This document shows positions 3,172 through 25,617 of a stretch of 64,000 bases of DNA, one piece after another. The translations under genes and the position numbers were made by a program. The stretch is from Muribaculaceae bacterium. GTDB lineage: Bacteria; Bacteroidota; Bacteroidia; Bacteroidales; Muribaculaceae. The notes under the pieces are model-generated. The model made no database searches. It was not told the origin of the DNA and worked only from the letters and a program-made list of their open reading frames with translations. The stretch lies in contig JBJECX010000006.1 of NCBI GenBank assembly GCA_051871535.1, positions 9,273 through 73,272 on the forward strand, in the 5' to 3' direction. Within the stretch, counting starts at the first letter, position 1. Each line of letters begins with the position of its first letter.

Positions 3172-3356
3172 TGATTTTTTTTTCAAAAACCATCGTTGCT
3201 GAATCAGAATATTTTTTTGCACACCAAAATATTCTGTGATGTAATCATATAATTATTCTACGATTGGGTGCCTTTTAGGGCGGCATGGCGAGTGATATTC
3301 ATAGCAATATCAATTCTGCGGTGCAGCCTTAATAATGCTTCAAATAACGCCAGGCA

Positions 3357-3647
3357 TCAGTTGCTTCGCACTTGTCCGTCGCCTTCCACTATCCATTTAT
3401 AGGTGGTGAGTTCTTCGAGAGCCATAGGTCCGCGGGCATGCAGCTTCTGTGTGCTGATACCTATCTCTGCGCCCAGCCCAAACTCGCCGCCGTCGGTAAA
3501 CGAGGTGGGGGCGTTGACATAGACGCAAGCAGCATCCACTTCGCGCATGAATCGCTGCGTCGCTGCCTTCTTCTCGGTGACGATGCACTCGCTGCAGTGC
3601 TCACCGGTGCAAATCTCACCGCCAATCACGCCCCTGATTTGCCTCAC
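3357..3647 (-). pseudogene. proA: 5'-truncated remnant of gamma-glutamyl phosphate reductase (proA), last ~90 codons only
   Basis: The translation ends [58 protein letters not shown], which matches the conserved ProA C-terminus. A full protein is ~415 aa. Homology stops at ~3640, where AT-rich sequence begins. Confidence 0.75.
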
Positions 3648-3803
3648 TCAAGAGGCAATTATGATGATTCTACAACAAACACTACACAAAACCGCCCGTT
3701 TTGCGCTGTTGAAAACTATTGAAAAATGTGCAAATTTATCTATTTTGATATTTTGAACACACTTTTTACTCTATTACAGACAAGTTTATAACAAAAAAAT
3801 ATC

Positions 3804-3811
3804 TATCTTTG
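3804..3811 (+). promoter_or_regulatory. Candidate -7 box TATCTTTG upstream of the lipoprotein operon
   Basis: Exact TAnnTTTG match in an AT-rich region, 170 nt upstream of ATG 3982. Confidence 0.4.
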
Positions 3812-3981
3812 TAATGCCGAAACACAATATGCTTGAATATTTTTGAGAAACACAAACTGATTATGCATCTTTTTTGAAAAAAGTTACATGAAAGGGTTAA
3901 CACAGAACTATGAAAGCAAGAATCGGCACACAAATAAAAGCATATTAAACAAGTAATTAAAATAAACAGATTTATTTACAA

Positions 3982-6480
3982 ATGAAGCAAGGATTAATTT
4001 GGGTTACAGCAGCCATAACAATACTAATGGCTTCATGCTCGGGCGATGAGCCTAAGATGGAGGCAGGGTATGGCAAATTCAAACCCACCTTTACGGCGGA
4101 CTACAGCGTGAAGGATTCAAGAGCTACCACGAAAGCGGCTACAGTGCCCACCGTGGCACAGCCCGACGTGAACGATTTTTATGTTCATCTGTCGCGCACC
4201 GATGGCTCGGTTGACAAGACCTGGAGCAAGGTGAGCGAGATGTCGCAAACCGAGAAATTCCCGGTGGGCAAGTATAATCTTGAGATGTACTATGGCGACA
4301 TCAACGACGAAGGCTTCGACAAGCCTTACTACTACGGCACTACCGAATTCACTATCTACGACGGCGAAGTGAGCGAGCCACAGGTGAAAGCCACACTGTG
4401 CAACACCATGGTGAGCATCGACTACACCGACGCTTTCAAGGCATACTTTACCGATTATAAAGCCATCATCCACTCGGGCGGCGGCGACTACATCACATTC
4501 GAGAGCACCGAAACACGCGCAGCATACGTGAAGCCGGGCACCATAAGCATGAGCCTCACCCTCACCAACCGCGAAGGCAATACGGTGACCATCGAACCGG
4601 CTGCCATACCCAATGCGCAGCCTAAGACGCACTATCGCATCACCTTCGACGTCAACGGCGGCGAAGTGGGCGACGCCGTGCTGGTGATTACCTTCGACGA
4701 GACCACCGAGGATGGCGGCGAAGTGGCAATCACCCTTGGCGACGAACTCTTCAACGCCGAGGAACCGTCAATCACTGCCGACAATTTCACCTCGGGCGAA
4801 ACCATCAGCATGATTGAAGGCGACGTGTTGGCAAATAGTCCTAAAATACATATAGCTGCCATGGCAGGATTCAGCGAAGTCACCCTCACCACCCAGTCAC
4901 AATACCTGCTCGCCCAAGGCTGGCCTGCCGAGCTCGACCTCACCAAAGCCACCCCGGCGCAACGCGCGCTGCTGATGAAGTACGGATTGAAGGTGTCGGG
5001 TCTGTGGGGCTCGTCGGCTTGCACCATGGCGATGGTCGACTTCTCCGACGTGATGCCTGCGTTGCGCGTATACAACGGAAGCAGCTCGCACGCGTTCACC
5101 CTCGTTGCCAAGGACATACTCACCCGCGTCACCCAACCCGTTACATTCAACGTGTCGGCTCCGTCGGTAATCCTCACCTTGCCTTCGAGCCTGACCATCG
5201 AACCGGCGGTCAGCCAAGTGAGCTGCGAAGTGACCTACAGCGGCACCAACTTTGCACAAAATGTGCACATTCAATGCCAAAAGAGCAACGGCACATGGGT
5301 GGACTCGCAAATCACCAACATAACATCGCTTGGCGACAACAAATACAGCATAACATTCACCGTGCCTATGATTGCCGACGACATTCAGGTGCGTGCAATC
5401 TATCGCAACGGCGTGAAGACAGTGGACGGTCTGACCGTGTCGCACAACATTCCGTCGCTCTCTCTTGCCGTGAACGACTACGACGTGTGGGCTTATAACG
5501 CCGCCCTCACCTATTCGTCGAGCAACGAGAACTACACCGAGCTGAACAAGGTGCTCTCCGTATACCTGTCGTCGGACGGCGGCAAGACCTTTGCTGCAGT
5601 GAGCGCAAGCAACCTCACCGTCGACGGTCAGAACATCAGCCTCAGAAATCTGAAACCGGGCATCGCCTATCAAGCAAAGATTTCGGTTGCCGGCACCCCC
5701 AACAATGCAAGCAACACCGTTTCATTCTCCACCGAAGCGGCAACACAGATTCCTAACAGCGACATGGAAAGCTGGAGCACCATCCAGAACTCAACAGTGA
5801 ACAGTGCATATGAGTTTATGCCATATTCCGAAGGCGAGAGCGACATCTGGTGGGCAACCAACAGCAAGCGCTCATTGGATGGAAAGAAGATTCTTGGCAT
5901 ATGGGCAAAAGTGGCATTCAGCCCTTGCGTAAGCTACACCACAACCGACATTCACGGCGGCTCGCGTGCAGCACTCATCTACACCTCGGGGCACGGCGGT
6001 GGCTACGCAAGCACCAACGAGATAATCTACTCGGGCGGTGGATTTGCCGGCGAATTATTCATCGGCAGCTACACCTACAACGGCAGTTCTAACGCCAACA
6101 TAGCGTATGGTCACTCATTCGCTTCGCGTCCTGCCACATTCTCGTTCTGGTATAAATACCAGCCGAAGAACACCGACCACTTTGTTGTGACAGTTGAGCT
6201 GAAAAACGGCAACACGGTGATTGCCGACGGTTCGTTCATCTCCGACGACACCTCGGTGAGCGACTCCCAATACCGATTGGCAGACATTGCGCTCGACTAC
6301 AAGGACCGCACCAAGAAAGCCACCTCAATCAGCGTAAGCTTCAAGTCGACCTACCGCACATCGTTCTCCGACAGCGACTTCGACAAAGCACGCAGCATCA
6401 CCTTCCCCGCCCCGATGGGTTCGTGGACAGCCCACATGGGTAGCATACTGCTCATCGACGATTTATCACTCACCTATTAA
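3982..6480 (+). CDS. Surface lipoprotein: DUF4493-like N-module + FN3-like + PCMD-like C-terminal domain
   Basis: Lipobox ILMASC. N-module contains FDKPYYYGTTEFTIYDGEVSEPQVKATLCNTMVSIDY. C-terminal part contains NSDMESWS, WWATNS, GELFIGSY, FASRPATFSFWYKY and ends LLIDDLSLTY, the PCMD pattern as I recall it. Confidence 0.75.
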   Translation: MKQGLIWVTAAITILMASCSGDEPKMEAGYGKFKPTFTADYSVKDSRATTKAATVPTVAQPDVNDFYVHLSRTDGSVDKTWSKVSEMSQTEKFPVGKYNLEMYYGDINDEGFDKPYYYGTTEFTIYDGEVSEPQVKATLCNTMVSIDYTDAFKAYFTDYKAIIHSGGGDYITFESTETRAAYVKPGTISMSLTLTNREGNTVTIEPAAIPNAQPKTHYRITFDVNGGEVGDAVLVITFDETTEDGGEVAITLGDELFNAEEPSITADNFTSGETISMIEGDVLANSPKIHIAAMAGFSEVTLTTQSQYLLAQGWPAELDLTKATPAQRALLMKYGLKVSGLWGSSACTMAMVDFSDVMPALRVYNGSSSHAFTLVAKDILTRVTQPVTFNVSAPSVILTLPSSLTIEPAVSQVSCEVTYSGTNFAQNVHIQCQKSNGTWVDSQITNITSLGDNKYSITFTVPMIADDIQVRAIYRNGVKTVDGLTVSHNIPSLSLAVNDYDVWAYNAALTYSSSNENYTELNKVLSVYLSSDGGKTFAAVSASNLTVDGQNISLRNLKPGIAYQAKISVAGTPNNASNTVSFSTEAATQIPNSDMESWSTIQNSTVNSAYEFMPYSEGESDIWWATNSKRSLDGKKILGIWAKVAFSPCVSYTTTDIHGGSRAALIYTSGHGGGYASTNEIIYSGGGFAGELFIGSYTYNGSSNANIAYGHSFASRPATFSFWYKYQPKNTDHFVVTVELKNGNTVIADGSFISDDTSVSDSQYRLADIALDYKDRTKKATSISVSFKSTYRTSFSDSDFDKARSITFPAPMGSWTAHMGSILLIDDLSLTY

Positions 6481-6496
6481 TCCCCACACACCGACA

Positions 6497-8029
6497 ATGA
6501 AAAAATTATATAATATCATAATGCTCATGGCATTGGCAACATTTGCTTTTGCCAGTTGCGACGACCCTAACTATGGCACCCAGAATGCCGAAGAAGGGCA
6601 ACTGAAGATGTCGACCCTCGGCATCGACGTCGACGCCTCGGAGAATGTAGTGACAAAGGCGTCGATTGACGTGAGCGGTTTCACCGTGCGCATCCTCGAT
6701 GCCAAGAGCGGACTGCTCAAAAACTCATGGACATTCAGCCAAATGCCCGAAGTGATTACACTTCCTGTGGGCGAATACACCGCTGAGGTATACAGCGCAC
6801 CGGTGCAAGAGGCAGCCTTCGACGCACCTTACTACTACGCCAAGCAAAACTTCACGATTGCCAAAAACAAGGTGACCGAACTCAACCCGGTGACCTGCAC
6901 CCTCGAGAATGTGCGCGTGAGCATAGTGTACAGCGAAGCACTGAAAAACGTGATGAGCGACGACGTGAAAGTGACCGTTGAAGTGGCAGAAAAGAACACC
7001 CTCAACTTCGGCGCAAACGAAACACGCTCGGGCTACTTCCGCTACTACGAAACCAACACCACGCTGGTGGCTTCGTTCAGCGGCACCGTCGACGGCGTGT
7101 TCATCCAGGAGGACCACAAGATTATGACCGACGTGGCTCCGCGCAAGCACTACATCATCACTTTCAACTACAAAGAAAACCCGACCCCAGGCGATGAATC
7201 GGGCTCGCTTACAAGCGCAAATTTTACTATTGACGCCACTGTGACAGTGGTGAATGTAACCCGCGACATAGACATTGACGACGAGATAATCGAGCCATTC
7301 GATTTCCTCACCACCTCCGTTTCGAGTGTAAACCTGCCATGCGCAGCAAGCACCAAGGATGTCACCGTGAAATCGTCGGCAGCATGGACCGTTGAAAGCA
7401 GCGATGAAAGCTGGTGCACCATCACCAACATCACAAGCACAGGCTTCACTATCAACGCCACAGCCAACGAGGCTTCGACAAGCCGCACGGCTAACGTGAA
7501 GGTGACTATGGGCAACCTGAGCAAGACCATCAAGGTCACTCAAGCCGAATATGCCGATGTTAAGCCAGCTCCGTCGTTCCAGAGCGACAACATCGACCTC
7601 GACAACTACAACGACGCATCGAAATTTGGCGACGGCAAGAAATCGGCCATCGTGAACATCAGTGCTCCTAACGGCATCAAGAGCCTGTTTGTTAACATCA
7701 TATCGGGCACACTCACCCCCGAGATTCTCGAAGGTGTGGGATTGGGCACCCAGTTTGACCTTGCCACCGGTCTGGCACCTAACGGCACCGACTTCACGGA
7801 AGGTCTGGTTGGCCTCGGATTCCCGGTTGCCAATGGCGGCACAATGACTATCAACAGCGTAGTATATAACTATGCAGCTGTTGTCAACCAAACCGAAGTG
7901 GTGTTCAACATCACTTCATTTATGGACCTGCTCGGCCTCTACGGCGCCGCCAAGCACGACTTCGAAATCACCGTAACCGACAATGCCGGCCTGGTGAACA
8001 AAGCAACAATCAAGTTTGAAACAAAATAA
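6497..8029 (+). CDS. Surface lipoprotein: DUF4493-like N-module + BACON-like domain
   Basis: Lipobox FAFASC. N-module is paralogous to 3982 and 8042 (FDAPYYYAKQNFTIAKNKVTELNPVTCTLENVRVSIVY). The segment VNLPCAASTKDVTVKSSAAWTVESSDESWCTI...RTANVKVTMGNLSKTIKVTQ looks like BACON. Confidence 0.7.
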   Translation: MKKLYNIIMLMALATFAFASCDDPNYGTQNAEEGQLKMSTLGIDVDASENVVTKASIDVSGFTVRILDAKSGLLKNSWTFSQMPEVITLPVGEYTAEVYSAPVQEAAFDAPYYYAKQNFTIAKNKVTELNPVTCTLENVRVSIVYSEALKNVMSDDVKVTVEVAEKNTLNFGANETRSGYFRYYETNTTLVASFSGTVDGVFIQEDHKIMTDVAPRKHYIITFNYKENPTPGDESGSLTSANFTIDATVTVVNVTRDIDIDDEIIEPFDFLTTSVSSVNLPCAASTKDVTVKSSAAWTVESSDESWCTITNITSTGFTINATANEASTSRTANVKVTMGNLSKTIKVTQAEYADVKPAPSFQSDNIDLDNYNDASKFGDGKKSAIVNISAPNGIKSLFVNIISGTLTPEILEGVGLGTQFDLATGLAPNGTDFTEGLVGLGFPVANGGTMTINSVVYNYAAVVNQTEVVFNITSFMDLLGLYGAAKHDFEITVTDNAGLVNKATIKFETK

Positions 8030-8041
8030 CAACGACAGGGT

Positions 8042-10183
8042 ATGAAAAAGTTTTTTAATACAATAATGGCGCTCTGCTTGATTGCCGGAGTATTGACATC
8101 ATGCTCTGACGACAAGTTCCTCACCGAGGGTGAGGGCGCAGCAAACTTCAGCGTCGTGCTCGACACCGAAGCCAACGTGGTAACTCGCGCAAGCAACGAA
8201 GCTGCGCTTGCCGAAAACTGCATCGTTTACGTCTACAACACACAAGGCTTGATTCGCAAATATCGCGGTACAAGCACGCTGCCATCGCAGCTCTTCCTCA
8301 AGAGCGGCAACTACCGCGTGACAGCAGCTGCCGGCGACAGCGTGCCGGCCTCGTTCACCGACCGTTACTTCAAAGGCGCCAGCGACTTCACCATCAGCGC
8401 CGGCAACGAAACCCAGGTGAACGTGCGTTGCCGCATTGCCAACTCGGTGGTGGTGGTTGATTTCGGCAACATCGCCGAAGCGCTCAGCGACTACAAGATT
8501 GCCGTGAGCAACGCCAACGGTGAACTCGAATTCACAAGCGACATGGAAGGCACCAAAGGCTACTTCATGCTCGACGACGGCGAGACATCGCTCAACTGGA
8601 AGATAACCGGCACTCAACTCGACGGCTCGGAATACGAGAAAACCGGCACCATCGACAACGTGAAGCCTACTCACCAGTACACCATCACAATGAACTACAG
8701 CAGCGCCCCAACCGAATACGGTGGTGCACTCATCACCATCGACGTGGCTGAGGCTGAAATTGTAACCAAGGAAGTGGTTATCACTGCCGCACCAAAGTTT
8801 ATGCTCAATGGCGGCCGCGACATCAACGCCCCTGTGGTGTCGCAACCCGAGGCATTCACCAGCAATGTGGCAGTTTACTGCACCTCGGCTTGCGCCCTCA
8901 AGAGCGTGGATGTGAAAGCCGACAACAACGTGTTCACCTCGCTGCTCGGATTGCCCGACAACGAGTTTGAGATATTCACGATGACCGACAACTATCGTGC
9001 TTCGCTCGAAAGCGCCGGACTCACCTACACCTACGACTACAACACCGAAGCCGACAACGCAATTGCCAAAATCGTCTTCCAGGACGAGATGCTCAATAAG
9101 CTGCCCGACGGTGACTACTACATCCACTTCACCGCCACCGATGTGATGAACAAGGTGCGCACCTACACTATGCACCTGCAAATCACCGACTCGTCGGTTG
9201 GCACTGTCGACATCAACGTAGACGATGTGTACACCTCGCGCGCCACAATCTATGGCACAGTGCTCAAGAGCAACGCCACCGCTCTTCAATTCCGCTATCG
9301 CGTGCAAGGCACCACCGACTGGACCGTGGTCGACGCTACCGTTTCGGGCAGCACCATGAGTGCAAGCCTCACAGGCCTCACCGCCGGCACCACCTACGAA
9401 TTCCAAGCCATCTGCGAGGGTTCGACGCTTGCCGACATCAAGACCTTCACCACCGAAGAAAAAGCGCAACTGAAAAACGCAAGCTTCGAAGAATGGAATA
9501 CCTCGTCGAAGGCTTATCTGATTTGCTCTTCGTCGAGCGACATGTTCTGGGATTCGGGTAATCACGGTTCATCGACTATGAACAAAAACGTGACCGTTCC
9601 TTCAACCACCTATGTGAACGACGGCACCTACTCCATCAACCTCAAGTCGCAATTTGTGGGCATCGGCTCAATAGGCAAATTTGCTGCCGGCAACGTGTTT
9701 ATCGGAAAATACATCCGCACCGACGGCACCGACGGCGTGATAGGATGGGGACGCGAATTCCATTCCCGTCCAAAGAGCCTCACCGGTTATGTGAAGTATT
9801 CGCCTGTTGAAATCAACAACAACGCAGGCACCGTTGACGGAGCCACCGGCATGGACAAGGGTCACATCTTCATCGTCCTTTGGGACGACTCGAAAGAGAC
9901 CGACAGCACCAGCGGCGAATCGTGGCCAAAAATCATCAACACAAAGACACAGCAACTGTTCGACCCTAATTCGGAACACGTAATTGCCTACGGCGAATTG
10001 GTTCTGACCGAAAGCACTGCAGCCGAAGGCCTGCAGCAGTTTGAAATAGTGCTCGACTACCGCAGCAACAAAAAGCCATCGGCAATTATAGTGACCTGTT
10101 CGGCAAGCAAATATGGCGATTATTTCTGCGGTGGCAGCGGCTCGGAAATGTGGCTTGACAATTTACAATTAAACTACGAATGA
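8042..10183 (+). CDS. Surface lipoprotein: DUF4493-like N-module + FN3-like + PCMD-like C-terminal domain
   Basis: Lipobox VLTSC. Paralogous N-module. FN3-like LQFRYRVQGTTDWTVVDATVSGSTMSASLTGLTAGTTYEFQA. PCMD-like KFAAGNVFIGKYIRTDGTDGVIGWGREFHSRPKSLTGYVKYSP, ending MWLDNLQLNYE. Confidence 0.75.
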   Translation: MKKFFNTIMALCLIAGVLTSCSDDKFLTEGEGAANFSVVLDTEANVVTRASNEAALAENCIVYVYNTQGLIRKYRGTSTLPSQLFLKSGNYRVTAAAGDSVPASFTDRYFKGASDFTISAGNETQVNVRCRIANSVVVVDFGNIAEALSDYKIAVSNANGELEFTSDMEGTKGYFMLDDGETSLNWKITGTQLDGSEYEKTGTIDNVKPTHQYTITMNYSSAPTEYGGALITIDVAEAEIVTKEVVITAAPKFMLNGGRDINAPVVSQPEAFTSNVAVYCTSACALKSVDVKADNNVFTSLLGLPDNEFEIFTMTDNYRASLESAGLTYTYDYNTEADNAIAKIVFQDEMLNKLPDGDYYIHFTATDVMNKVRTYTMHLQITDSSVGTVDINVDDVYTSRATIYGTVLKSNATALQFRYRVQGTTDWTVVDATVSGSTMSASLTGLTAGTTYEFQAICEGSTLADIKTFTTEEKAQLKNASFEEWNTSSKAYLICSSSSDMFWDSGNHGSSTMNKNVTVPSTTYVNDGTYSINLKSQFVGIGSIGKFAAGNVFIGKYIRTDGTDGVIGWGREFHSRPKSLTGYVKYSPVEINNNAGTVDGATGMDKGHIFIVLWDDSKETDSTSGESWPKIINTKTQQLFDPNSEHVIAYGELVLTESTAAEGLQQFEIVLDYRSNKKPSAIIVTCSASKYGDYFCGGSGSEMWLDNLQLNYE

Positions 10184-10917
10184 CAAATCGAATAAAGCTA
10201 TTAATAGTAATGTTCTTGTTCTTGGGCGCACTTACCGCCCAAGGGCAGGAACATTTCAGTCGTAATATCGACCAAGTGGTGTTTGTGCCCAAAGGGCAGT
10301 GGGTGGTTGGGCTGAGTGCCAACTACGGGCAAAGCAAGTTCGACAACTATCAATATCTGGTGGTTGAAAACATCAATGGCGACAACTACTCGTTCAAGGT
10401 GAGCCCCATGCTCTGCTATATGTTCAAGGACGACCTTGGCATTGGCGGCCGTTTCGCCTACACCCGCACCCGCACAAAAATGAACAGCGCCGACTTTGTG
10501 CTATCGAGCGACGACTCGTTCAGCATCGACAACCTCTATGCCATCACGCAAAACTATCACAGCACCGTGCTCATGCGCCAATACATGAGTCTGGGAAAAT
10601 CGAAGCGCTTTGGCATCGTCAACGAAATGACGCTGCGCTACGGCTTGAGCGAATCGAAACTGGCAAGCGGCTCGGGCGTCGACTTTTCCGGCTCGTTTAT
10701 GCGCACCCACTCGTTCGGGCTGGGCGTATCGCCCGGCATTTGCGTGTTCCTAAGCAACTATTCGGCTGTGGAGGTTAATGTTGGTGTGCTCGAACTCGGC
10801 TACTCGAAGATGCGTCAAACCAACAATCAGATTCAAGTGGCTAACACCAAGAACAAGAGCGCTAATTTCAAGATTAACTTATTCTCAATATCCCTCGGGG
10901 TGGCATTCTACTTATGA
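10180..10917 (+). CDS. Small outer-membrane beta-barrel candidate (245 aa)
   Basis: Signal peptide. Alternating hydrophobic pattern with Y/G/S/N-rich segments. C-terminus ANFKINLFSISLGVAFYL. ATGA overlap with the upstream gene. Confidence 0.55.
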   Translation: MTNRIKLLIVMFLFLGALTAQGQEHFSRNIDQVVFVPKGQWVVGLSANYGQSKFDNYQYLVVENINGDNYSFKVSPMLCYMFKDDLGIGGRFAYTRTRTKMNSADFVLSSDDSFSIDNLYAITQNYHSTVLMRQYMSLGKSKRFGIVNEMTLRYGLSESKLASGSGVDFSGSFMRTHSFGLGVSPGICVFLSNYSAVEVNVGVLELGYSKMRQTNNQIQVANTKNKSANFKINLFSISLGVAFYL

Positions 10918-11810
10918 TTACAAGTCTAAAACACATAATTTGCCTCATAGCAGCGGCAGCGGCATTCACACTTCCGGCAGCGGCACGGGATGCCGATATG
11001 CCCGGGCTCAAAGACGTGGTAGTGGCGGACAGCATAGTGGGCGAACTGGCTTCAGTATTGGCTGAGGACGCCGAACTGCACAAGAAAGTGATTGTGGGCA
11101 AGGACACCGTGAGTGTGATTATCCCCGATCGCAACTACGGTCGCTATCATCGCGGCCTTTACACCCACCTGTTTGTGCCCAAGGGGCAGTTTGCCTGCGG
11201 CTTGCAAGCCTCCTATGGCAGCGCCAGCTCCGAGGACCTACAAGTGCTCAGCTACATCACCGACCTCGACTTCGACGGCACCACCTACTCGTTCAAGCCC
11301 TATTTCAGCTATTTCTATAAGCACAACAAATGCTTGGGCGTGCGGCTTGGTTTCTCGCGAAACGAGTTCAACCTCAACAGCTTCTCGGTTGACTTCGACG
11401 ACGACATCAACTTTGATGTGCGCGACGTGAAATACTACACTAAAAGCACCTCAATCGAGCTGTTCCGACGCAACTACATCGGCTTGGACAATAGCCGACG
11501 CTTTGCCGTGTTCAACGAGGTGGCTCTGAAGTATGGCAGCGGCAGCGGCAAGTTTCAACGCCTCTACAACGACGAGCCGAAACTCACCGAAACCAACACC
11601 AACGAGCTGCGCCTCGATTTCTCGCCGGGTCTGTGCGTATTCATTCAGGAGAAAGTGGCATTCAACGTGTCGTTTGGCATCTTTGGATGGTACTACCGCC
11701 GCGACAAGCAGACAACCGACGGTGTCAACGAAGGCTCGCGCTCGTCGAGCGGTGCCAACTTCAAAATCAATCTGTTGAACCTGAAACTTGGCATTGCCAT
11801 CTTCATGTAA
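10914..11810 (+). CDS. Small outer-membrane beta-barrel candidate (298 aa), paralog of 10180-10917
   Basis: Shares LFVPKGQ(W/F)..GL.A.YG, the Y(S/T)FK(V/P)...Y block and the C-terminal ANFKINLLNLKLGIAIFM with the preceding gene. ATGA overlap with that gene. Confidence 0.55.
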   Translation: MITSLKHIICLIAAAAAFTLPAAARDADMPGLKDVVVADSIVGELASVLAEDAELHKKVIVGKDTVSVIIPDRNYGRYHRGLYTHLFVPKGQFACGLQASYGSASSEDLQVLSYITDLDFDGTTYSFKPYFSYFYKHNKCLGVRLGFSRNEFNLNSFSVDFDDDINFDVRDVKYYTKSTSIELFRRNYIGLDNSRRFAVFNEVALKYGSGSGKFQRLYNDEPKLTETNTNELRLDFSPGLCVFIQEKVAFNVSFGIFGWYYRRDKQTTDGVNEGSRSSSGANFKINLLNLKLGIAIFM

Positions 11811-11827
11811 TCAAACCAGCAATAGCT

Positions 11828-13408
11828 ATGAAAGTATTCAGCAACATATTTTGCCGGATTATGGCAGCAACGGCTATTACGCTCGTGGCTTCGGGATGCT
11901 TGAAAAACGACATCCCCTACCCGCTTATTCAGGCTGCTTTCACCTCCATCGAGGCAGAGCACCAGGCGGGCACGCCAATCATCGACACCAAGAACCAAAT
12001 GGTAACACTGCGTCTCGACGAGCAAGCCAACATCAAGCAGGTGATGATTAAGAGCTACACCATCACCGAAGGCGCCACCATATCAAACGACATCAAGGGC
12101 GGGCTCAACCTCAGTGGCGAGCCCTACAGCGTGGTGCTCTCGCTCTATCAGGACTACACCTGGGTGATTACCGCACAACAGGTGATAGAGCGCTACTTCA
12201 CGCTCGCCGGTCAAGTGGGCAGCTCAATAATCGACGTCCCTGGCAAGCGCGTGGTGGCTTATGTGCCCAAGAGCGCCGATTTAACCCAAGTGCAGGTGAC
12301 GTCGGCAAAGCTCGGTCCGGCTGAGGTGTCGACCATGACACCCGACCTCAACAATCAGACTGCCGACTTCTCGTCGCCCGTGAAGGTGAAGGTGAACTAC
12401 CATAACACCGTTGAAGAATGGACCATCTACGTCGAGCGCAGCGAGCAGGACGTGCAGCTGAGCAGCGCCGACGCATGGACGCGCGTGATTTGGCTCTACG
12501 GCAGCGCCGAAGCAGGCAAGACCAACGGCTTTGAATACCGCGAAGCCGGCAGCAGCCAGTGGATTGAGGTGCCGCAAGCCCAAATCACCCACAACGGCGG
12601 CTCATACAGCACCTGCGTGAACGGATTGAAGCCGAACACCCTCTACGAGTGCCGTGCCACAAGCGGCGAACTCAAGAGCGGCACCACGGCTGTAACCACC
12701 GACTCGGAATACACCATTCCTAACCTTAACTTCGATTCGTGGTGGCTCAACGACAAGGTGTACTGCCCGTGGGAAGAAGGTGGTGAGACCTATTGGGACA
12801 CCGGCAACAAAGGCGCCACTACGCTTGGCAGCAGCAACAGCGTGCCTTCAACCGACACATGGAACGGCAAAGGCAATTGCGCCGAACTCAACACCAAGTT
12901 TGTGGGCATCGGCGTTGTGGGCAAGCTCGCCGCCGGTAACCTGTTCACCGGCGACTATGTGCGCACCGACGGCACAAACGGCATCCTGCACTTCGGACGC
13001 CCGTTCACCGGACGCCCCACCAAGCTCAAAGGACACTGGAAATGCAACGTGGTGAACATCTCGCACTCATCCAACGAGTTTGCCCATCTCAAGGGTCAAC
13101 CCGACACCTGCGTGGTGTACGTTGCCCTTACCGACTGGAACGAACAATATGAGATTCGCACCAACCCCAACAACCGCCAACTGTTCGACCGCAATGACGA
13201 ACATGTGATTGCCTACGGAACCATCGAGACGGCTAAGACAATCGCCAACTGGCAAGACTTCGAAATCAAGCTGGAGTATCGAGCCACCAACCGCAAGCCT
13301 AAATACATCCTCATTGTGGCTTCGGCAAGCAAATATGGTGACTACTTCACCGGCGGCGACGGCACCACCTTGTGGGTCGATGACTTCTCGCTCGAATGGG
13401 ACTATTAG
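11828..13408 (+). CDS. Surface lipoprotein with FN3-like + PCMD-like C-terminal domain
   Basis: Start moved to ATG 11828 (MKVFSNIFCRIMAATAITLVASGC lipobox); the track ORF extends upstream into the previous gene. FEYREAGSSQWIEVPQ...LKPNTLYECRA is FN3-like. GKLAAGNLFTGDYVRTDGTNGILHFGRPFTGRPTKLKGHWKC and the ending LWVDDFSLEWDY are PCMD-like. Confidence 0.75.
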   Translation: MKVFSNIFCRIMAATAITLVASGCLKNDIPYPLIQAAFTSIEAEHQAGTPIIDTKNQMVTLRLDEQANIKQVMIKSYTITEGATISNDIKGGLNLSGEPYSVVLSLYQDYTWVITAQQVIERYFTLAGQVGSSIIDVPGKRVVAYVPKSADLTQVQVTSAKLGPAEVSTMTPDLNNQTADFSSPVKVKVNYHNTVEEWTIYVERSEQDVQLSSADAWTRVIWLYGSAEAGKTNGFEYREAGSSQWIEVPQAQITHNGGSYSTCVNGLKPNTLYECRATSGELKSGTTAVTTDSEYTIPNLNFDSWWLNDKVYCPWEEGGETYWDTGNKGATTLGSSNSVPSTDTWNGKGNCAELNTKFVGIGVVGKLAAGNLFTGDYVRTDGTNGILHFGRPFTGRPTKLKGHWKCNVVNISHSSNEFAHLKGQPDTCVVYVALTDWNEQYEIRTNPNNRQLFDRNDEHVIAYGTIETAKTIANWQDFEIKLEYRATNRKPKYILIVASASKYGDYFTGGDGTTLWVDDFSLEWDY

Positions 13409-13437
13409 CGCATGTTTCATAAAAAACCATAAATAAT

Positions 13438-13476
13438 AAGGCTGCAAGCAACCATAATGTAACGCTTTGCAGCCTT
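13438..13476 (+). terminator. Hairpin terminator closing the lipoprotein operon
   Basis: AAGGCTGCAA (13438-13447) pairs with TTGCAGCCTT (13467-13476), followed by T-rich sequence. Confidence 0.55.
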
Positions 13477-13482
13477 TATTCT

Positions 13483-13490
13483 TATCTTTG
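13483..13490 (+). promoter_or_regulatory. Candidate -7 box TATCTTTG
   Basis: Exact TAnnTTTG match 50 nt upstream of ATG 13540, directly after the terminator hairpin. Confidence 0.4.
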
Positions 13491-13539: not shown

Positions 13540-14538
13540 ATGAAACGATTGTTTGCCGGATTATTGCTTGCTGTGGCGGCGCTCGTTGGCGCGGCACAAG
13601 AGCACATTGTGGTGATGGACAGCCACGGCGGAGGCATACTGCCCGACTCGGTGATGCCCGATGCGCTGAAGCAACGCCTCTACGGCACCCGCGTCACGGC
13701 CGAAGGCTTCAACCTGCAACGCAGCACCGGACTCGATGCTCCCACTCTGGCGCCTAAACTCTCGCCGATGAACAACGTGGAATCGCCGCGGCTCAATGCC
13801 GACCGTTACATCGACTCGCTCGGCATGCGTCGCCCCGACGTGGCACTGCCAAGCAGCTATGCCGTGACCGGCTCCAACAGCCACCTGATTTGGCAACGCA
13901 ACATGTTTGCAGGCGATTTTTCGCACGAAGGCATAATAGCCGACTGGTACGACGGCCACGTGAGCGGCTACAGCGGCATGTCAACCCAACCTATGCTTGG
14001 CTCGGCGCGATGGGCGGGCGCTGCCGTCACTCAGAACTTTGGCGAACACTGGCAGGCGTCAACCGGCATCACCTTCAACAAATACGCCGTACCCTGGAAT
14101 GCCTTTAACACCTATTCGTTCAACGGACAACTGATGTATACGCTCAACAGCAACGTGTCGGTGAGCGCTTTCGGCATCTATGAATCGGCGCCGTTCTTCA
14201 GCCATAGCAACAGCAACCGCGCATCGATGCTATATGGCGGATACCTCACTCTGAAAACCAACAACGACAAGTGGGGCGTGGACATGGGTGCACAAACCTA
14301 TCGCGACCCCGCCACCGGACGCTCTGCCACGCTGCCCATCTTTCGCCCGTTCTACAACCTCAACGGTCAGAAACTCGGCTTTGACCTTGGCGGACTGCTC
14401 TACCAGATTTTCCGGAACATAAGCATCAATGCCAACGGCAGCGGATATGTCGACGGCAACTACACACCGGCTAAAGTGCCACCCATGGGTGGCGGCACTC
14501 ACGGCAAAACACTCGGATTCGAACGCCGACAGCGCTGA
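13540..14538 (+). CDS. Secreted hypothetical protein
   Basis: ATG 13540 gives MKRLFAGLLLAVAALVGAAQE (signal peptide); the track start at 13525 is TTG. No family recognised. Confidence 0.5.
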   Translation: MKRLFAGLLLAVAALVGAAQEHIVVMDSHGGGILPDSVMPDALKQRLYGTRVTAEGFNLQRSTGLDAPTLAPKLSPMNNVESPRLNADRYIDSLGMRRPDVALPSSYAVTGSNSHLIWQRNMFAGDFSHEGIIADWYDGHVSGYSGMSTQPMLGSARWAGAAVTQNFGEHWQASTGITFNKYAVPWNAFNTYSFNGQLMYTLNSNVSVSAFGIYESAPFFSHSNSNRASMLYGGYLTLKTNNDKWGVDMGAQTYRDPATGRSATLPIFRPFYNLNGQKLGFDLGGLLYQIFRNISINANGSGYVDGNYTPAKVPPMGGGTHGKTLGFERRQR

Positions 14539-19487: not shown

Positions 19488-21281
19488 TCACTTATACATT
19501 GGGCCGAAAGCAGCGCAAGCGCGGTAGTCCTGACCTTCCTTGTCCATGCCGAATGCGTTCCAGGCAGCCGGACGGAAGATGTCGTCCTCAGGCACGTTGT
19601 GCATCGACACCGGGATGCGCAAAATAGAGCACAGCGTGATGAGGTCGGCACCGATGTGGCCATAGCTGATGGCACCGTGGTTGGCACCCCAGTTGTTCAT
19701 CACATCGTAAGCGCTCTTGAATGCGCCCTTTCCGGTGAGGCGTGGAGCAAACCAGGTGCACGGCCAAGTGTAGTCGGTGCGCTTCCACAATTTGTCGCTC
19801 ACCTCGTCGGGCAGGTTCACTGTCCACCCTTCGGCAATCTGCAGCACCGGACCGAGGCCCTTCACCAGGTTCAGGCGAATCATAGTGACAGGCATTTCGG
19901 CACGAGTGAGGTAGCGCGACGAGTAGCCGCCGCCGCGGAAATATCCATAGTCGGCCTGACACCATTCGGTGGCAGCAAGCATCTTCTTCTGGTCGTCGTC
20001 TGTGACTTCATACCAAGGCTTCATCACATGGTTGCCCTCGGCATCGGTCACTTCGCCGCAAGCGTCGAGGCAGGCAGCGCCACTGTTAATAAGGTGCAAG
20101 AAGCCTTTCGACTCCTTGGCAACGCCTTCGAGGTCGTAGCCGGTGGTGCGCTTCACAGCCTCCGGGCTCCAGTAGGTGCGCACGTCGGCAAAGATTTGGG
20201 CGCGGTTGGTGAGCAGCTTCATGAACAGCATACCCAGGCCGTTAAGCACGTCGTTTTCGGTGGCAAGGATATATGGTTCGCGGGCACCGTTCCAGTCGAA
20301 CGACGAGTTGCAAAGCGCTTCGGCAAAGTCGCCGTTAGGATAGAAGTCGGTCCATTGACGTTGTCCCTGGAAACCGGCAGCGATGGCATTATGGCCCACC
20401 ATTTCCTCTTCGCAGCCCTTAGGCAGATTCTTGTTGCCGTTCATCAGGTCCTTGATGATAACCATCATCTTCACCACAAATTCCCAAGCCTCCTGTTTCT
20501 GCTCGGGTGTGCGCTGAAGTTCGGCAGGATTCTTGTCGAAGCCTTCGCGACAGTTAGCCTTGGTCCAGGCAAGAGCCTTCTGATATTCTTCTTCGTTGTA
20601 GATGCCTTCGGTCATGCGACGGATAATTTCCACTTCGTCGACACTTTCAACGCGCATGCCAAGGTATTCTTCGATGAATTGAGGGTCGATAATAGAGCCG
20701 CCGATACCCATGCAAATCGAGCCTATTTGCAACCACGATTTGCCACGCATGGTGGCAGCAGCCACAGCGGCACGGCCAAAGCGCAACAGTTTTTCGCGCA
20801 CGTCAGCCGGGATGGTGGAGTCGTCGGCATCCTGCACGTCGCGGCCATAGATGCCAAATGCAGGACGACCCTTTTGGGCATGGGTGGCAAGCACCGAAGC
20901 CAAATACACGGCGCCCGGACGCTCGGTGCCGTTGAAGCCCCATACGCCCTTGATGGTGAGCGGGTCCATATCCATTGTTTCGGCGCCATAGCACCAGCAA
21001 GGAGTGACGGTGAGCGTGATGTCGACGCCCGCCTTCTTAAACTTCTCGGCGCAAGCGGCACTTTCGCCCACACGGCCGATGGTGGTGTCGGCAATAACTA
21101 CCTTCACCGGTTCGCCGTTAGAGTAGCGGATATTCTCTTCAAATAGTTTGGCTGCAGCACGAGCCATGTTCATTGTTTGCTCTTCGAGCGATTCGCGCAC
21201 CTTGAGCACACCGCGGCGGCCGTCAATGGTAGGACGGATGCCAATTACCGGGTAATCACCCACAAGTCTGTTTTCTGCCAT
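19488..21281 (-). CDS. fucI: L-fucose isomerase
   Basis: 597 aa; [36 protein letters not shown]... and the full-length pattern are characteristic of FucI. Confidence 0.93.
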
Positions 21282-21576
21282 AGAATAGGTATTTAGTTAT
21301 TTTAAAAAGTTTTTTTGGTTAGAATAGTTGGTTATTAATTTTATTGAGTTGTCCACGAAGATACACAAAAAATATGAAATAACGGCAAAAGCGACGCATA
21401 ATTAACCCCGCCCCTCGGCTTTTTTTTCACATTCTTAAGAAAAACTCACCCGCCGGCTGCCACTCACCGCCAAGCGCCACCATATCTGTTGCATGCCGCA
21501 CACGGCTTTGCCAGGCGCAATGGCGTTGAGGGAAATATTTTCGGGCAATCAGCACTTGTTTTGGATAATTTTTCAG

Positions 21577-21584
21577 TAATTTTG
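21577..21584 (+). promoter_or_regulatory. Candidate -7 box TAATTTTG
   Basis: TAnnTTTG match 47 nt upstream of ATG 21631. Confidence 0.35.
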
Positions 21585-21630
21585 AAGTCACTAAACAATA
21601 CCAACAAACCAATACATATTTTAAACCTTT

Positions 21631-22512
21631 ATGATTAAGCTACAGAATTGTGAACTGGAGATTGCTGTGAAGCTGCATGGCGCCGAACTATGCAGCATAG
21701 TGAAGAACGGCTGCGAGCACTTGTGGAACGCCGACGCTGCCATTTGGGCGCGCCACTCGCCTGTGCTGTTTCCCATTGTGGGGCGGGTGTGGGACAACCG
21801 CTACCGTGTGCTGAACCGCGAATACAGCCTGCCGCAGCACGGCTTTGCCCGCGACATGGATTTTACGCCGGTTGAACAGACTCCGTGCAGCGCCACGTTT
21901 GTGCTGGAGAGCAACGAAGAGACGCTTGCCAAATACCCCTACCCTTTTCGCCTTACCATCGGCTACCGTCTTGAAGGCAACCGTGTGGTGGTGAGCTGGG
22001 ATGTTGAAAACACCGGCGAGGGCGCCATGCACTTCCAGATTGGCGCTCACCCGGCATTTGTGCTGCCCGACTTCGACGCTGCCGACCCGACTCCGCGAGG
22101 CTATTTCACCTTCAAGGGCAACAAACAGCTCTATTACACCCATCCGGGCGAGAAGGGCTGCGCTGCCACCGAGGTGACCGAATTCCTGCCCGATTGCGGC
22201 AGCATGCTTGCCATCACGCCCAATGCTTTCGGCCCCGACACCTATATGTTCGAAAACAATCAGCTCACCGGTGTGGGCATCGTCGACAAGCAGCAACAGC
22301 CCTACATCGACGTTGAATTCTCTGCCCCGCTGCTGGCGCTGTGGGCTCCGGTGAAGGCTCACCCCGAATGTCCGTTTGTGTGCATCGAGCCATGGTATGG
22401 CCGCTGCGACTATATGCACTACGAGGGCGATTTTGCTTCGCGTCCGTGGATGAACCACCTGGGCGCCGGCGAGCACTTCAAAGCCGAATACACCATTACG
22501 GTGCACCGCTGA
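21631..22512 (+). CDS. Aldose 1-epimerase family protein (mutarotase-like)
   Basis: 293 aa; SPVLFPIVGRV...LPQHGFAR and ...HPAF...EPW motifs of the aldose epimerase family. Divergent from fucI. Confidence 0.7.
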   Translation: MIKLQNCELEIAVKLHGAELCSIVKNGCEHLWNADAAIWARHSPVLFPIVGRVWDNRYRVLNREYSLPQHGFARDMDFTPVEQTPCSATFVLESNEETLAKYPYPFRLTIGYRLEGNRVVVSWDVENTGEGAMHFQIGAHPAFVLPDFDAADPTPRGYFTFKGNKQLYYTHPGEKGCAATEVTEFLPDCGSMLAITPNAFGPDTYMFENNQLTGVGIVDKQQQPYIDVEFSAPLLALWAPVKAHPECPFVCIEPWYGRCDYMHYEGDFASRPWMNHLGAGEHFKAEYTITVHR

Positions 22513-22549
22513 TGCCCAGAAAGGCGCCAATGCACCGTGACAAAATAAT

Positions 22550-22596
22550 GCCCCGGGCGATGCTGATGATAGCGCATCGTCCGGGGCAAGTTTTTT
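22550..22596 (+). terminator. Rho-independent terminator
   Basis: GCCCCGGGCGATGC (22550-22563) pairs with GCATCGTCCGGGGC (22574-22587) with one mismatch, then TTTTTT (22591-22596). Confidence 0.75.
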
Positions 22597-22618
22597 CAGT
22601 GATTATGTAACAATAAGA

Positions 22619-23686: not shown

Positions 23687-23745
23687 ACGCTACAAAAAAA
23701 ATTAAGTTTGAAATAAAATAATAGTTATGTTAATTATAAAAATAT

Positions 23746-23773
23746 GGGCGAGGCTTTTTCAGGGCACTCGCCC
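23746..23773 (-). terminator. Hairpin downstream of the 23796-24554 gene
   Basis: GGGCGAG (23746-23752) pairs with CTCGCCC (23767-23773). A T-run follows on the minus strand. Confidence 0.4.
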
Positions 23774-23795
23774 TGTTATTGTCATGTAAGTTTTA

Positions 23796-24554: not shown

Positions 24555-24576
24555 AATCAATTGAGCTGATGGTTAA

Positions 24577-25524: not shown

Positions 25525-25617
25525 AGTGTTAAGCGTTTTTTATTTTTTCTGGAATATTCTTCAATTCTGTTTCTTGCGAAAAAATGTTTTTTATCTGTGT
25601 GAGAAACCGCAGTGATT

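Follow-up and report, generated by a model that had tools for sequence, protein, structure and literature searches.

Gene Organization of the Six-Gene Unit

The window analyzed here is a stretch of 64,000 nt from a Muribaculaceae bacterium (contig JBJECX010000006.1). Six ORFs are encoded on the + strand between positions 3982 and 13408 (Table 1), at the same positions as in an earlier note made from the sequence. They encode three lipoproteins with a DUF4493 domain (g1, g2, and g3), two paralogous small barrels (g4 and g5), and one lipoprotein with a PCMD domain (g6). The earlier note had described co-directional genes with short gaps or ATGA overlaps, and the same junctions were recovered: three pairs of genes are separated by 16, 12, and 17 nt, and two pairs overlap by 4 nt (ATGA). 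This arrangement supports the six genes as one tightly packed unit. As had also been claimed, enzymes, transporters, and regulators were not detected in the six-gene unit, and it contains no gene for SusC/D, a TonB receptor, or a sigma/anti-sigma pair.

Table 1. Positions of the genes and candidate transcription signals in the window.
Feature	Position	Strand	Basis
Candidate Bacteroidetes-type promoter region, two TAnnTTTG boxes	3804-3845	+	Consensus match only
g1, 832-aa lipoprotein, Cys19	3982-6480	+	Pfam, paralogy, hhalign, lipobox statistics
g2, 510-aa lipoprotein, Cys21, C-DDPNY	6497-8029	+	Pfam, AF2 model, Foldseek, hhalign
g3, 713-aa lipoprotein, Cys21, C-SDDK	8042-10183	+	Pfam, PDB sequence match, paralogy, hhalign
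g4, 245-aa outer-membrane beta-barrel, ordinary signal peptide	10180-10917	+	ATGA overlap with g3
g5, 298-aa outer-membrane beta-barrel, ordinary signal peptide	10914-11810	+	ATGA overlap with g4
g6, 526-aa lipoprotein, Cys24	11828-13408	+	Pfam, motif, hhalign, synteny
Hairpin followed by T-rich stretch, candidate intrinsic terminator	13438-13476	+	Sequence inspection

The candidate promoter boxes, TATCTTTG (3804-3811, + strand) and TATTTTTG (3838-3845, + strand), are located 137-178 nt upstream of the ATG of g1. Only the former had been recognized before. No other TAnnTTTG was found on the + strand over the 9.6 kb between the latter box and positions 13483-13490, and there is no room for intergenic promoters because of the ATGA overlaps and the gaps of 12-17 nt. 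The sequence at 13483-13490 resembles a promoter box and is assigned to the following gene (ATG at 13541), outside the operon; the unit end previously placed at 13490 falls in this box. The hairpin proposed as a terminator, AAGGCTGCAAGC ... GCTTTGCAGCCTT, is present with its T-rich stretch; a simple hairpin scan listed it only in a shortened form of 5 bp, on the - strand.

Domain Composition of the Lipoproteins

Pfam matches were obtained for DUF4493 in g1 (E 5e-45), g2 (5e-49), and g3 (4e-47), for BACON in g2 (E 8e-11), and for PCMD in g3 (E 4e-40) and g6 (E 2e-47). These are the three families named in the earlier note, and the Pfam search it had proposed agrees with them. The PCMD part of g3 also matches the PDB entry 4HET by sequence (E 1.2e-05). 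The tail described as FN3-like plus PCMD-like holds for PCMD in g3 and g6; the PCMD match of g1 is partial and marginal (E 2.7e-07, 31 bits vs the cut-off of 28), and the FN3-like regions in the window are under the Pfam threshold (fn3, 21 bits vs 25). BACON and PCMD are named in annotation as putative binding, carbohydrate-related families, and their ligand-binding roles are such annotations. No mention of DUF4493 was found in the literature.

The g1 protein is composed of DUF4493 (aa 29-244), a domain designated X (aa ~260-385), an FN3-like region, and a divergent PCMD tail (aa ~595-832). The order in g3 is DUF4493 (aa 30-245), X (aa ~250-385), FN3-like (aa ~390-471), and PCMD (aa 481-710). 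In g2, BACON (aa 283-350) is inserted between DUF4493 (aa 33-258) and X (aa 355-510), and the AF2 model shows pLDDT >90 across DUF4493 and X. The N-terminal modules of the three proteins are 24-29% identical in pairwise comparison. Their paralogy was recognized earlier, but the homologous part is longer than the ~230 aa proposed, as the ~130-aa X domain next to DUF4493 is also homologous among them (hhalign probability 96-97%).

A homologous FN3-like+PCMD tail is common to g1, g3, and g6, and the tails of g3 and g6 are 34% identical over 351 aa (E 5e-58). Upstream of its FN3-like region (aa ~215-295) and PCMD (aa 301-522), g6 has two tandem ~95-aa repeats (aa 24-212), which are related to each other (hhalign probability 99%) and unrelated to DUF4493 (hhalign probability <1%). 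The earlier note likewise gave g6 a different N-terminus and the same tail. Across 79 orthologues, 112 residues of g6 are at least 90% conserved; PCMD is very strongly conserved, with many invariant G/N/T/W residues. As a counterpoint to an adhesin, this conservation of PCMD would also fit an enzyme or the binding of a conserved cell-envelope ligand.

Lipoboxes are present in g1, g2, g3, and g6. The Cys of g1 is in an acidic context (C-SGDEP), an export-type signal, and the g1-g3 classes are acidic at positions +2 to +6 after Cys, with at least two D/E in 79-91%. This pattern matches the Bacteroidota lipoprotein export signal. This signal was reportedly described by Lauber in 2016 and Valguarnera in 2018. 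The concept of the signal in Bacteroidota is presented in PMC10319031. In g6, Cys24 is followed by a near-invariant, non-canonical motif, C-[IL]-x-N-D-[IV]-P-Y-P. Because the canonical acidic export signal is absent, g6 could face the periplasm.

Paralogous Outer-Membrane Barrels

The g4 and g5 proteins are paralogues (29% identity, E 4e-34) with mature sizes of 223-274 residues. Neither belongs to a Pfam family, and the OMP_b-brl match of g4 is weak (E 5.7e-04, under the cut-off). The barrel family comprises 1,166 clusters at 50% identity. The AF2 model of g5 (pLDDT 77.8, pTM 0.67) shows about 10 long strands and neither a plug nor TonB features. Foldseek with this model returned only generic small outer-membrane proteins, with the OmpA TM domain, OmpX, Pla/OmpT, and NspA among the best, and OmpW/OprG-type channels also among the structural neighbors. 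In the g5 family, 73 residues are at least 90% conserved, and a highly conserved N-terminal segment of ~35 aa (aa 59-91) precedes the barrel strands. One homologue, P0372, contains a g4-like and a g5-like barrel fused in a single chain, which hints that the two barrels may associate physically. One match to Omp85 in the operon is sub-threshold (E 0.0037), and no homology to Slam (DUF560) or TpsB was detected.

Conservation of the Gene Order

Synteny was compared among 80 related genome loci. All 80 contain both barrels, always with the g4-like gene before the g5-like gene, and the two barrel genes and the g6-type lipoprotein gene are adjacent and co-directional in 78/80. The copy number of DUF4493 genes upstream of the barrels varies from 0 to 3, and DUF4493 genes are missing altogether from about half of the loci, which retain the barrels and g6. 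Thus, the invariant core is g4, g5, and g6, and the DUF4493 genes are optional. The synteny check proposed in the earlier note shows strong co-conservation of barrels and lipoproteins, while its centering on the three DUF4493 lipoproteins was misplaced. In loci L004-L006, the three DUF4493 genes have no barrel genes in their neighborhood, indicating that the accessory lipoproteins are not strictly dependent on linked barrels.

The flanking contexts differ between loci, and the same gene order is observed in dozens of unrelated contexts; the full architecture is retained in divergent family members. No other neighboring gene is conserved, the best being common to 13/80 loci, and the 80 loci share no conserved gene for an inner-membrane transporter, a periplasmic binding protein, or a catabolic enzyme. 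The gene arrangement is not due to chance, and the operon is real and widespread in gut Bacteroidales (Muribaculaceae).

Similarity of DUF4493 Proteins to Type V Pilins

Among specific matches, Foldseek ranked nine entries of the type V pilin superfamily best for the g2 model (3UP6, 4H40, 3GF8, 4QDG, 5CAG, 3R4R, 3UFI, 4RDB, and 6JZK; probability 1.00, E 6e-07 to 7e-05), although the TM-scores are just 0.30-0.40 (target-normalized) and the identity is 8-11%. The matches include the Mfa2-like anchors 3GF8 and 4QDG, the tip pilin 3UP6, and the FimA protein 6JZK; the matched structures are sorted into anchor, tip, or FimA in PMC5789003. The DUF4493 modules have a pilin-like N-terminal beta1 strand (aa 33-37 in the g2 model) and then a T-R/K-A loop, with the sequences VVT-K-AS in g2, VVT-R-AS in g3, and DS-R-ATTK-A in g1. 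At this loop position R/K is observed in 58/84 distinct homologues, and the motif [TSVEA][RK][AST] in 49/84; the site is missing from many g1-type homologues and from every single-copy DUF4493-BACON homologue. No Pfam fimbrillin family was matched even at E<=1 in 45 members, the DUF4493 proteins do not belong by sequence to P_gingi_FimA, Mfa2, or Mfa_like, and profile searches did not reach PDB pilins. Neither stalk (FimA/Mfa1-like) nor Mfa2-like anchor genes that could supply donor strands were found in the operon or its flanks. These matches count in part against the earlier reading, which placement of the N-modules in a characterized family would have refuted: type V pilins are the best specific match of the predicted fold, but with low TM-scores and no fimbrillin Pfam match. 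Given the fold matches, the beta1 strand, and the loop, the earlier statement that no pilus-assembly gene is present was too strong.

Comparison with Known Systems

Judged by gene layout and published descriptions, the closest known analogue is the S-layer pair BT1927/BT1926 of B. thetaiotaomicron. There, a large surface lipoprotein gene is beside a small outer-membrane barrel gene, enzymes and transporters being absent; the N-terminus of the lipoprotein is conserved past the signal peptide, comparable to the g6 motif, and the barrel is proposed as an anchor or export partner (PMC12578637, PMC4611039, 10.1101/521070). That pair has one predicted 8-stranded barrel encoded after the lipoprotein, whereas the present operon has two paralogous ~10-stranded barrels encoded before g6, up to three extra pilin-like lipoproteins, and neither a tyrosine recombinase nor a GTTAC-N7-GTAAC invertible promoter.

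Type V pili of Bacteroidia (FimA/Mfa1 stalk, FimB/Mfa2 anchor, Mfa3-5/FimC-E tip) are also built from lipoprotein precursors. DUF4493 is predicted to be a module of two beta-sandwiches, closest among solved structures to anchor and tip pilins, and it shares the N-terminal strand with an exposed Arg/Lys loop and, as tip pilins do, carries appended, putatively adhesive domains. It differs in its position outside the pilin Pfam families, its low TM-scores, the absence of stalk and anchor genes, and its invariant partners, namely a pair of barrels and a lipoprotein that is not a pilin, none of which occurs in described type V pilus operons. SusCD, RagAB, BtuBG, and HmuYR similarly combine an acidic-signal surface lipoprotein with a co-transcribed outer-membrane barrel to which it is presumed to bind, and BACON and FN3-like beta-sandwiches are typical of PUL surface proteins. 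However, the barrels here are 245-298 aa, in contrast to the ~1000-aa, 22-stranded, plug-containing TBDTs, and Pfam identifies no Plug, TonB_dep_Rec, or SusD-like domain in the operon, which also has no linked glycoside hydrolases or regulators. Slam/TbpB of Neisseria is similar only in concept, as a dedicated barrel gene beside the surface lipoprotein served; Slam has a 14-stranded barrel and a periplasmic TPR domain, and it is absent from Bacteroidota (PMC12578637).

Possible Functions of the Operon

It is fairly unlikely that the operon product is a minimal, divergent form of the type V pilus or a fibril derived from pilins. In such a structure, g1-g3 would be pilin-like lipoproteins cut after the conserved Arg/Lys of the beta1-beta2 loop, freeing the lipid anchor and opening a groove for inter-subunit strand exchange; the barrels would be the outer-membrane device for export or anchoring that has long been missing, and g6 would be a retained anchor. 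The nine pilin entries and the strand and R/K loop in all three lipoproteins are consistent with this, as is the fact that tip pilins require just an acceptor groove and bear extra adhesive domains. The low TM-scores and identity, the lack of sequence-level pilin matches and of a donor-strand source, the unrelatedness of g6 to DUF4493, the homologues missing the R/K site, and the loci with no DUF4493 gene argue against it. Also unlikely, and lower in our estimate, is a dedicated translocon in which g4/g5 would flip or export g6, perhaps g1-g3 too, by recognizing the invariant g6 motif, as a functional analogue of Slam or of the two-partner-secretion idea for BT1927/BT1926. Its support is purely positional: the g6 gene is always directly 3' of the barrels, its protein has a near-invariant N-terminal motif and no canonical acidic signal, and the N-terminus of BT1927 is similarly over-conserved beside a barrel gene. 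According to PMC12578637, no surface lipoprotein (SLP) flippase has been identified in Bacteroidota, and more than one dedicated flippase is considered possible, but ~10-stranded barrels are narrow for protein translocation and, except for the sub-threshold Omp85 match, show no homology to Slam, Omp85, or TpsB.

TonB-independent capture and uptake, in which PCMD lipoproteins would bind a specific small ligand or oligosaccharide at the cell surface and pass it to g4/g5 as diffusion channels (a 'SusCD-lite'), is improbable. A lipoprotein with a barrel is the standard nutrient-uptake layout in Bacteroidota, the conservation of g6 PCMD is as strong as would be expected for a defined ligand, and OmpW/OprG-type channels are among the barrel neighbors; the barrels are nevertheless small with non-channel or generic best matches, no transporter, binding protein, or catabolic enzyme is co-conserved, and the genomic contexts are mutually unrelated. 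That the genes form no system and are functionally independent surface proteins clustered by happenstance is very improbable. The DUF4493 triad without barrels in L004-L006 and the loci without DUF4493 could be read in this way, but it is disfavored by the fixed-order co-occurrence (80/80 and 78/80), the overlapping stop/start codons, the varied contexts, and the retention in distant members.

No published characterization of the operon was found in the literature. Complexes of surface lipoproteins and barrels are recognized as characteristic of Bacteroidota; in one of them, a small barrel is proposed to anchor an S-layer lipoprotein or to take part in its secretion (PMC12578637). This is therefore not the entirely undescribed kind of system that the earlier note had suggested. 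Most likely, the operon builds a cell-surface complex in which sugar-binding-like lipoproteins are held by the two small outer-membrane barrels, an uncharacterized example of an assembly whose kind is already known. We give about an even chance to a self-contained outer-membrane surface module, a lipoprotein/barrel complex showing lectin-like domains. In this module, g4 and g5 would be neighbors in the outer membrane, probably forming a hetero-oligomer, and serve as a membrane platform, that is, an anchor and possibly an assembly or export partner. The g6 protein would be their obligate cognate lipoprotein, exposed at the surface, with a lipid anchor, two repeats, an FN3-like region, and the highly conserved beta-sandwich of PCMD. 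As many as three accessory lipoproteins (g1-g3), exported to the surface via acidic signals, would join this platform, each with a type V-pilin-like two-sandwich stalk (DUF4493), X, and carbohydrate-binding-type heads (BACON, FN3-like, PCMD). The complex would perform neither catalysis nor TonB-dependent substrate import; its lectin-like domains, displayed at the cell exterior, may bind glycans or cell surfaces, or may form a protective coat.

Organization of the Six-Gene Unit

The six co-directional genes g1–g6 (table below) are separated by 16, 12 and 17 nt at three junctions and overlap by ATGA at the other two. Lipoboxes were found in g1, g2, g3 and g6 (the lipobox cysteine is Cys19 in g1 and Cys21 in both g2 and g3), and ordinary signal peptides in g4 and g5. 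An AT-rich spacer of ~900 bp (GC 0.39) lies 5′ of g1 and contains TAnnTTTG boxes at 3804 and 3838. TAnnTTTG is absent within the 9.6-kb unit, because the first plus-strand occurrence after the spacer boxes is at 13483. The observation of a six-gene unit in the earlier note was confirmed. The end coordinate of 13490 proposed there was not retained: the box at 13483–13490 precedes the ATG at 13541 of an unrelated secreted-protein gene, to which it belongs, and is separate from the g1–g6 unit.

Features of the g1–g6 unit and of an unrelated polysaccharide-utilization-type region in the window
Feature	Position	Strand	Length (aa)	Description
g1	3982–6480	+	832	DUF4493 lipoprotein
g2	6497–8029	+	510	DUF4493 lipoprotein
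g3	8042–10183	+	713	DUF4493 lipoprotein
g4	10180–10917	+	245	small barrel
g5	10914–11810	+	298	small barrel, paralogous to g4
g6	11828–13408	+	526	PCMD lipoprotein with tandem repeats
Hairpin	13438–13476			hairpin with T-rich tail, 3′ of g6
L-fucose isomerase	19488–21281	−		
Aldose epimerase	21631–22512			
ORF	23796–24560			downstream of SusC/D-like genes, without Pfam family
ORF	24577–25524			downstream of SusC/D-like genes, without Pfam family; lipoprotein
SusD-like gene	25618–27393	−		
SusC-like gene	27418–30609	−		

The separate unit right after the candidate terminator hairpin has the TATCTTTG box at 13483–13490. Its ORF (13541–14538, ~332 aa) starts with ATG and has the signal peptide MKRLFAGLLLAVAALVGAAQE. 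It belongs to no Pfam family, showing only a faint match to DUF2490 (E 0.085), and may encode another outer-membrane protein. This gene is not kept beside the module in other loci. The polysaccharide-utilization-type region at 19488–30609 is unrelated to the module.

The divergent gene upstream of the operon encodes a Polysacc_synt_2 (CapD-like) protein, and the convergent downstream neighbour an AXE1-type esterase. Within the otherwise AT-rich spacer there is a GC-rich island of ~300 bp (3300–3660) with ORFs on both strands (3357–3647 on the minus strand, 96 aa; 3372–3722 on the plus strand). The Pfam scan of the minus-strand ORF gave no match. The island looks like what remains of a decayed gene, suggesting that the 5′ border of the operon was rearranged in the past.

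A sigma-70 promoter scan was disregarded, since the model is not applicable to Bacteroidetes. No convincing inverted repeat was found around the candidate promoter of g1–g6, and the motif GTTAC-N7-GTAAC gave two one-mismatch matches (516 and 4003), which are at chance level and do not flank the promoter. Phase variation was rejected on the absence of invertible-promoter repeats and on the identity of the upstream gene, which does not encode a recombinase.

Domain Composition of the Lipoproteins

Pfam gathering thresholds were used as the membership test for DUF4493 (PF14900), PCMD (PF13201) and BACON (PF13004). DUF4493 was confirmed for g1–g3 (E 5e-45 to 5e-49; 154–168 bits against a cut-off of 27), as was BACON for g2 (E 8e-11; 42 bits against 25). 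The PCMD assignment stood for g3 (4e-40, 139 bits) and g6 (2e-47, 163 bits), and became marginal for g1, where the Pfam match is partial (2.7e-07; 31 bits against 28). The FN3 domains suggested previously fell below the Pfam threshold in the window (fn3, 21 bits against 25). No NCBIfam model matches g1–g6 (nine window proteins were scanned). The tails of g3 and g6 share 34% identity over 351 aa (E 5e-58) and are plainly homologous; that of g1 is a distant relative.

The C-terminal domain of g2 has homologues in g1 and g3, in the ~130 aa that follow DUF4493 (profile–profile comparison, probability 96–97%). Therefore, the module shared by the three proteins consists of DUF4493 plus this domain, designated here as X, and BACON in g2 is an insertion between the two. 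Among 45 DUF4493 proteins homologous to g2 (P0004–P0049), 19 show weak matches to DUF4397 (best E 2.4e-06) and 6 show matches to DUF5006; these matches might correspond to the shared X domain.

In g6, the N-terminal half consists of two tandem ~95-aa repeats (profile–profile comparison, probability 99%). These have no relation to DUF4493 (hhalign probability <1%), and the idea of a degenerate DUF4493-type "anchor pilin" at the g6 N-terminus was rejected.

At least two acidic residues are present at positions +2 to +6 in 79–91% of the proteins of the g1–g3 classes. Acidic residues at these positions typically mark the export signal of Bacteroidota lipoproteins. Unlike these classes, g6 has a non-canonical and near-invariant mature N-terminus, C-[IL]-x-N-D-[IV]-P-Y-P. 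Among 79 g6 orthologues, 112 residues, mostly in the PCMD domain, are at least 90% identical, and the conservation of g6 equals that of the barrels.

The Twin Barrels

The two barrel proteins, g4 and g5, are paralogous (29% identity, E 4e-34) and give only a sub-threshold OMP_b-brl signal. The predicted structure of g5 (pLDDT 77.8, pTM 0.67) is a barrel of ~10 mostly long strands (13–26 residues). Foldseek matched it to generic small outer-membrane proteins only (OmpA transmembrane domain, OmpW/OprG, OmpX/Ail, Pla/OmpT and NalP), and the target-normalised TM was never above 0.57. Across 60 members of the barrel family, DUF3575 was matched once and below threshold (E 0.0095), OMP_b-brl weakly in seven, and PorP_SprF in none; DUF3575 and PorP/SprF are small barrels associated with pili or the T9SS.

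The pre-barrel segment of g5 (aa 59–91) is very conserved, with near-invariant D64, T65, N74, R77, R80, G81 and L82. The g5 of the window has just ~65 residues before the barrel. Many g5-like homologues, such as P0239, P0246, P0325 and P0086, carry a low-complexity, charged N-terminal extension of 100–300 aa rich in K/E/A/P, which suggests periplasmic reach or linkers. The homologue P0372 (449 aa) unites a g4-like barrel (aa ~4–234) and a g5-like barrel (aa ~247–449) in one polypeptide. This arrangement could have arisen by natural fusion of the two paralogues or from a frameshift where their genes overlap at ATGA, and it offers a weak Rosetta-stone hint of a contact between g4 and g5.

Conservation of the Core

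The barrel-profile scan of one genome per species gave at least 600 pattern matches; tblastn confirmed at least 518 of them. Among the matches listed, the 80 best loci, almost all from Muribaculaceae or Bacteroidales MAGs, were annotated using HMMs of the window proteins. A g4-like barrel lies directly 5′ of a g5-like barrel in all of these 80 loci, and a g6-type lipoprotein with repeats and PCMD follows the barrels in 78. One of the two exceptions is at a contig end, and in the other (L046, 1–3300) dnaN follows the barrels. L046 is the only evaluable locus with dnaN instead of the g6-type gene after both barrels; this junction could stem from loss of the gene or from a join made during MAG assembly. 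Upstream DUF4493 genes are more variable among the best 80 loci: none in 46, one in 13, two in 2 and three in 19. Another PCMD lipoprotein gene is upstream in 6 of the 46 loci without a DUF4493 gene. The module thus has an invariant part, g4+g5+g6, and a frequent but optional extension, the DUF4493 lipoproteins.

In separate look-ups, the full six-gene order recurred in unrelated contexts, and both the barrel–barrel–PCMD set alone and the core with one DUF4493–BACON gene were found as well. When the barrel profile was searched exhaustively with HMMER, 1,166 clusters (50% identity) were found at E ≤ 1e-3, of which 242 reach E ≤ 1e-30, and family members ranked towards the end of the top 150 have the same operon layout. 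The recurrence in unrelated contexts and these distant members therefore indicate that the unit is an ancient, autonomous module. Clustering of 768 neighbouring ORFs revealed no other conserved partner gene, none being common to more than 13 of the 80 loci. A third round of homologue searching used a broad DUF4493 profile and added just 26 DUF4493-only proteins and no new architectures. In one lineage (L004–L006, 7.1–13.6 kb), a DUF4493 triad of 808, 435 and 755 aa has no adjacent barrels or g6-type gene. This triad follows a RhuM-family gene and has a GerE-type regulator nearby.

Predicted Similarity of the DUF4493 Module to Type V Pilins

The AF2 model of g2, built from 45 sequences, has a mean pLDDT of 79.7, with values >90 across the DUF4493 and X domains, including aa 61–230. 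With the whole four-domain g2 model as the Foldseek query against PDB, not the DUF4493 module alone, the best specific matches were nine Bacteroidales type V pilin-superfamily structures (3UP6, 4H40, 3GF8, 4QDG, 5CAG, 3R4R, 3UFI, 4RDB and FimA 6JZK). These matches have probability 1.00 and E 6e-07 to 7e-05 at 8–11% identity, with a target-normalised TM of 0.30–0.40 and rmsd of 7.6–12.3 Å, and generic multi-Ig proteins gave comparable E-values. Two of the nine, 3GF8 and 4QDG, are Mfa2-like anchors, and 3UP6 is a tip-type protein (Hall et al., PMC5789003).

Sequence searches returned no such similarity. The Pfam families P_gingi_FimA, Mfa2 and Mfa_like_1 had no match to the window modules at E ≤ 10, and fimbrillin families are absent among the 25 most often matched of the 38 families that 45 homologues match at E ≤ 1. 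Neither phmmer nor two profile searches of PDB sequences recovered a pilin for DUF4493; the results were noise, and the sole non-noise match was 4HET, to the PCMD part. The earlier note had named placement of the N-terminal modules in a characterised family, such as type V pilins, as a finding against its own reading. This objection applies in part, Foldseek favouring pilins and the sequence searches returning none.

The layout of g1–g3 is prepilin-like: the lipobox is followed by a short strand (GxGxLxLxVxV) and then by a T-R/K-A loop, recognized by motif only (VVTKAS in g2, VVTRAS in g3 and DSRATTKA in g1). Rgp-type processing of FimA and Mfa proteins occurs at this R/K loop. R or K is present at the loop position in 58 of 84 distinct homologues and is missing in many g1-type and all single-copy DUF4493–BACON homologues.

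Interpretation of the Module

The best-supported reading is a surface lipoprotein (SLP)–barrel complex, in which the twin barrels would be a putative membrane platform for g6. Where present, the pilin-fold, lectin-headed lipoproteins g1–g3 would also be served by the barrels. The literature names SLP–barrel complexes as a hallmark of Bacteroidota (PMC12578637), and the feature of this kind, a lipoprotein with an acidic export signal encoded beside an outer-membrane β-barrel, is present here. In Bacteroides thetaiotaomicron, the small barrel BT1926 was proposed to anchor the S-layer lipoprotein BT1927 or to be its secretion partner (PMC12578637, PMC4611039, bioRxiv 10.1101/521070); the N-terminus of BT1927 is conserved beyond the signal peptide (PMC4611039). 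Compared by description, the g6 N-terminus is over-conserved as in BT1927, but here there are two paralogous ~10-strand barrels and another gene order. The present module also differs in its pilin-like accessory lipoproteins and in having no invertible promoter or recombinase, while that of BT1927/BT1926 is GTTAC-N7-GTAAC-flanked with a tyrosine recombinase.

Four other readings were weighed against the SLP–barrel complex. A minimal type V pilus would agree with g1–g3 being lipoprotein precursors with a lipobox cysteine and an N-terminal β1 strand followed by an Arg/Lys site. However, g1–g3 have no sequence membership in fimbrillin families, and no stalk and anchor pilins that would donate C-terminal strands are co-encoded, either among the six genes or their neighbours. 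A search for canonical fimbrillin genes in 1.6 Mb of flanking sequence gave 7 lipoprotein candidates, none of them pilin-like. With these caveats, a pilin-like fold of DUF4493 is likely, and the module is unlikely to be a type V pilus. Another alternative is a TonB-independent uptake device. The module differs from SusCD/TonB-dependent transporters, which have a 22-stranded barrel with a Plug domain and a SusD-like partner: Plug, TonB_dep_Rec and SusD have no matches in g1–g6, and the barrels are 245 and 298 aa long. The genes might also form no system at all, a reading disfavoured by the recurrence of their order in unrelated contexts.

The remaining alternative is a dedicated lipoprotein translocon. 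In its most specific form, the twin barrels would be an export and anchoring device for some Bacteroidales SLPs, recognizing the conserved N-terminal motif of mature g6, and a docking platform for pilin-fold lipoproteins; this proposal is rather improbable.

The earlier note interpreted the unit as an undescribed multi-component surface assembly. This was supported in part: the module is co-conserved and uncharacterised, but its building blocks are of known kinds, namely type V pilin-like lipoproteins, lectin-like β-sandwiches and SLP–barrel pairing. The literature search found no paper naming DUF4493 and just incidental mentions of PCMD, and family members are named "hypothetical protein" or "DUF4493 domain-containing protein" in databases.

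Two questions stand out in the biology of Bacteroidota: by which route hundreds of surface lipoproteins reach the cell surface and are held there (PMC12578637), and how proteins of the type V pilin-like kind pass the outer membrane (PMC5789003). The twin barrels are a possible dedicated device for lipoprotein display or export. If they are such an export device, no specialised SLP flippase or anchor would have been identified in Bacteroidota before them, and they would be a candidate for the outer-membrane step that is missing from the display of type V pilin-like proteins. If the module is only a lectin-bearing surface complex, it would still provide context for DUF4493 and PCMD and a new family of outer-membrane proteins. 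The three-gene core, its wide spread, the unclassified twin barrels and the near-invariant g6 motif make the module a tractable test case for barrel-dependent display, and one that lies in Muribaculaceae, a dominant and poorly studied gut family.
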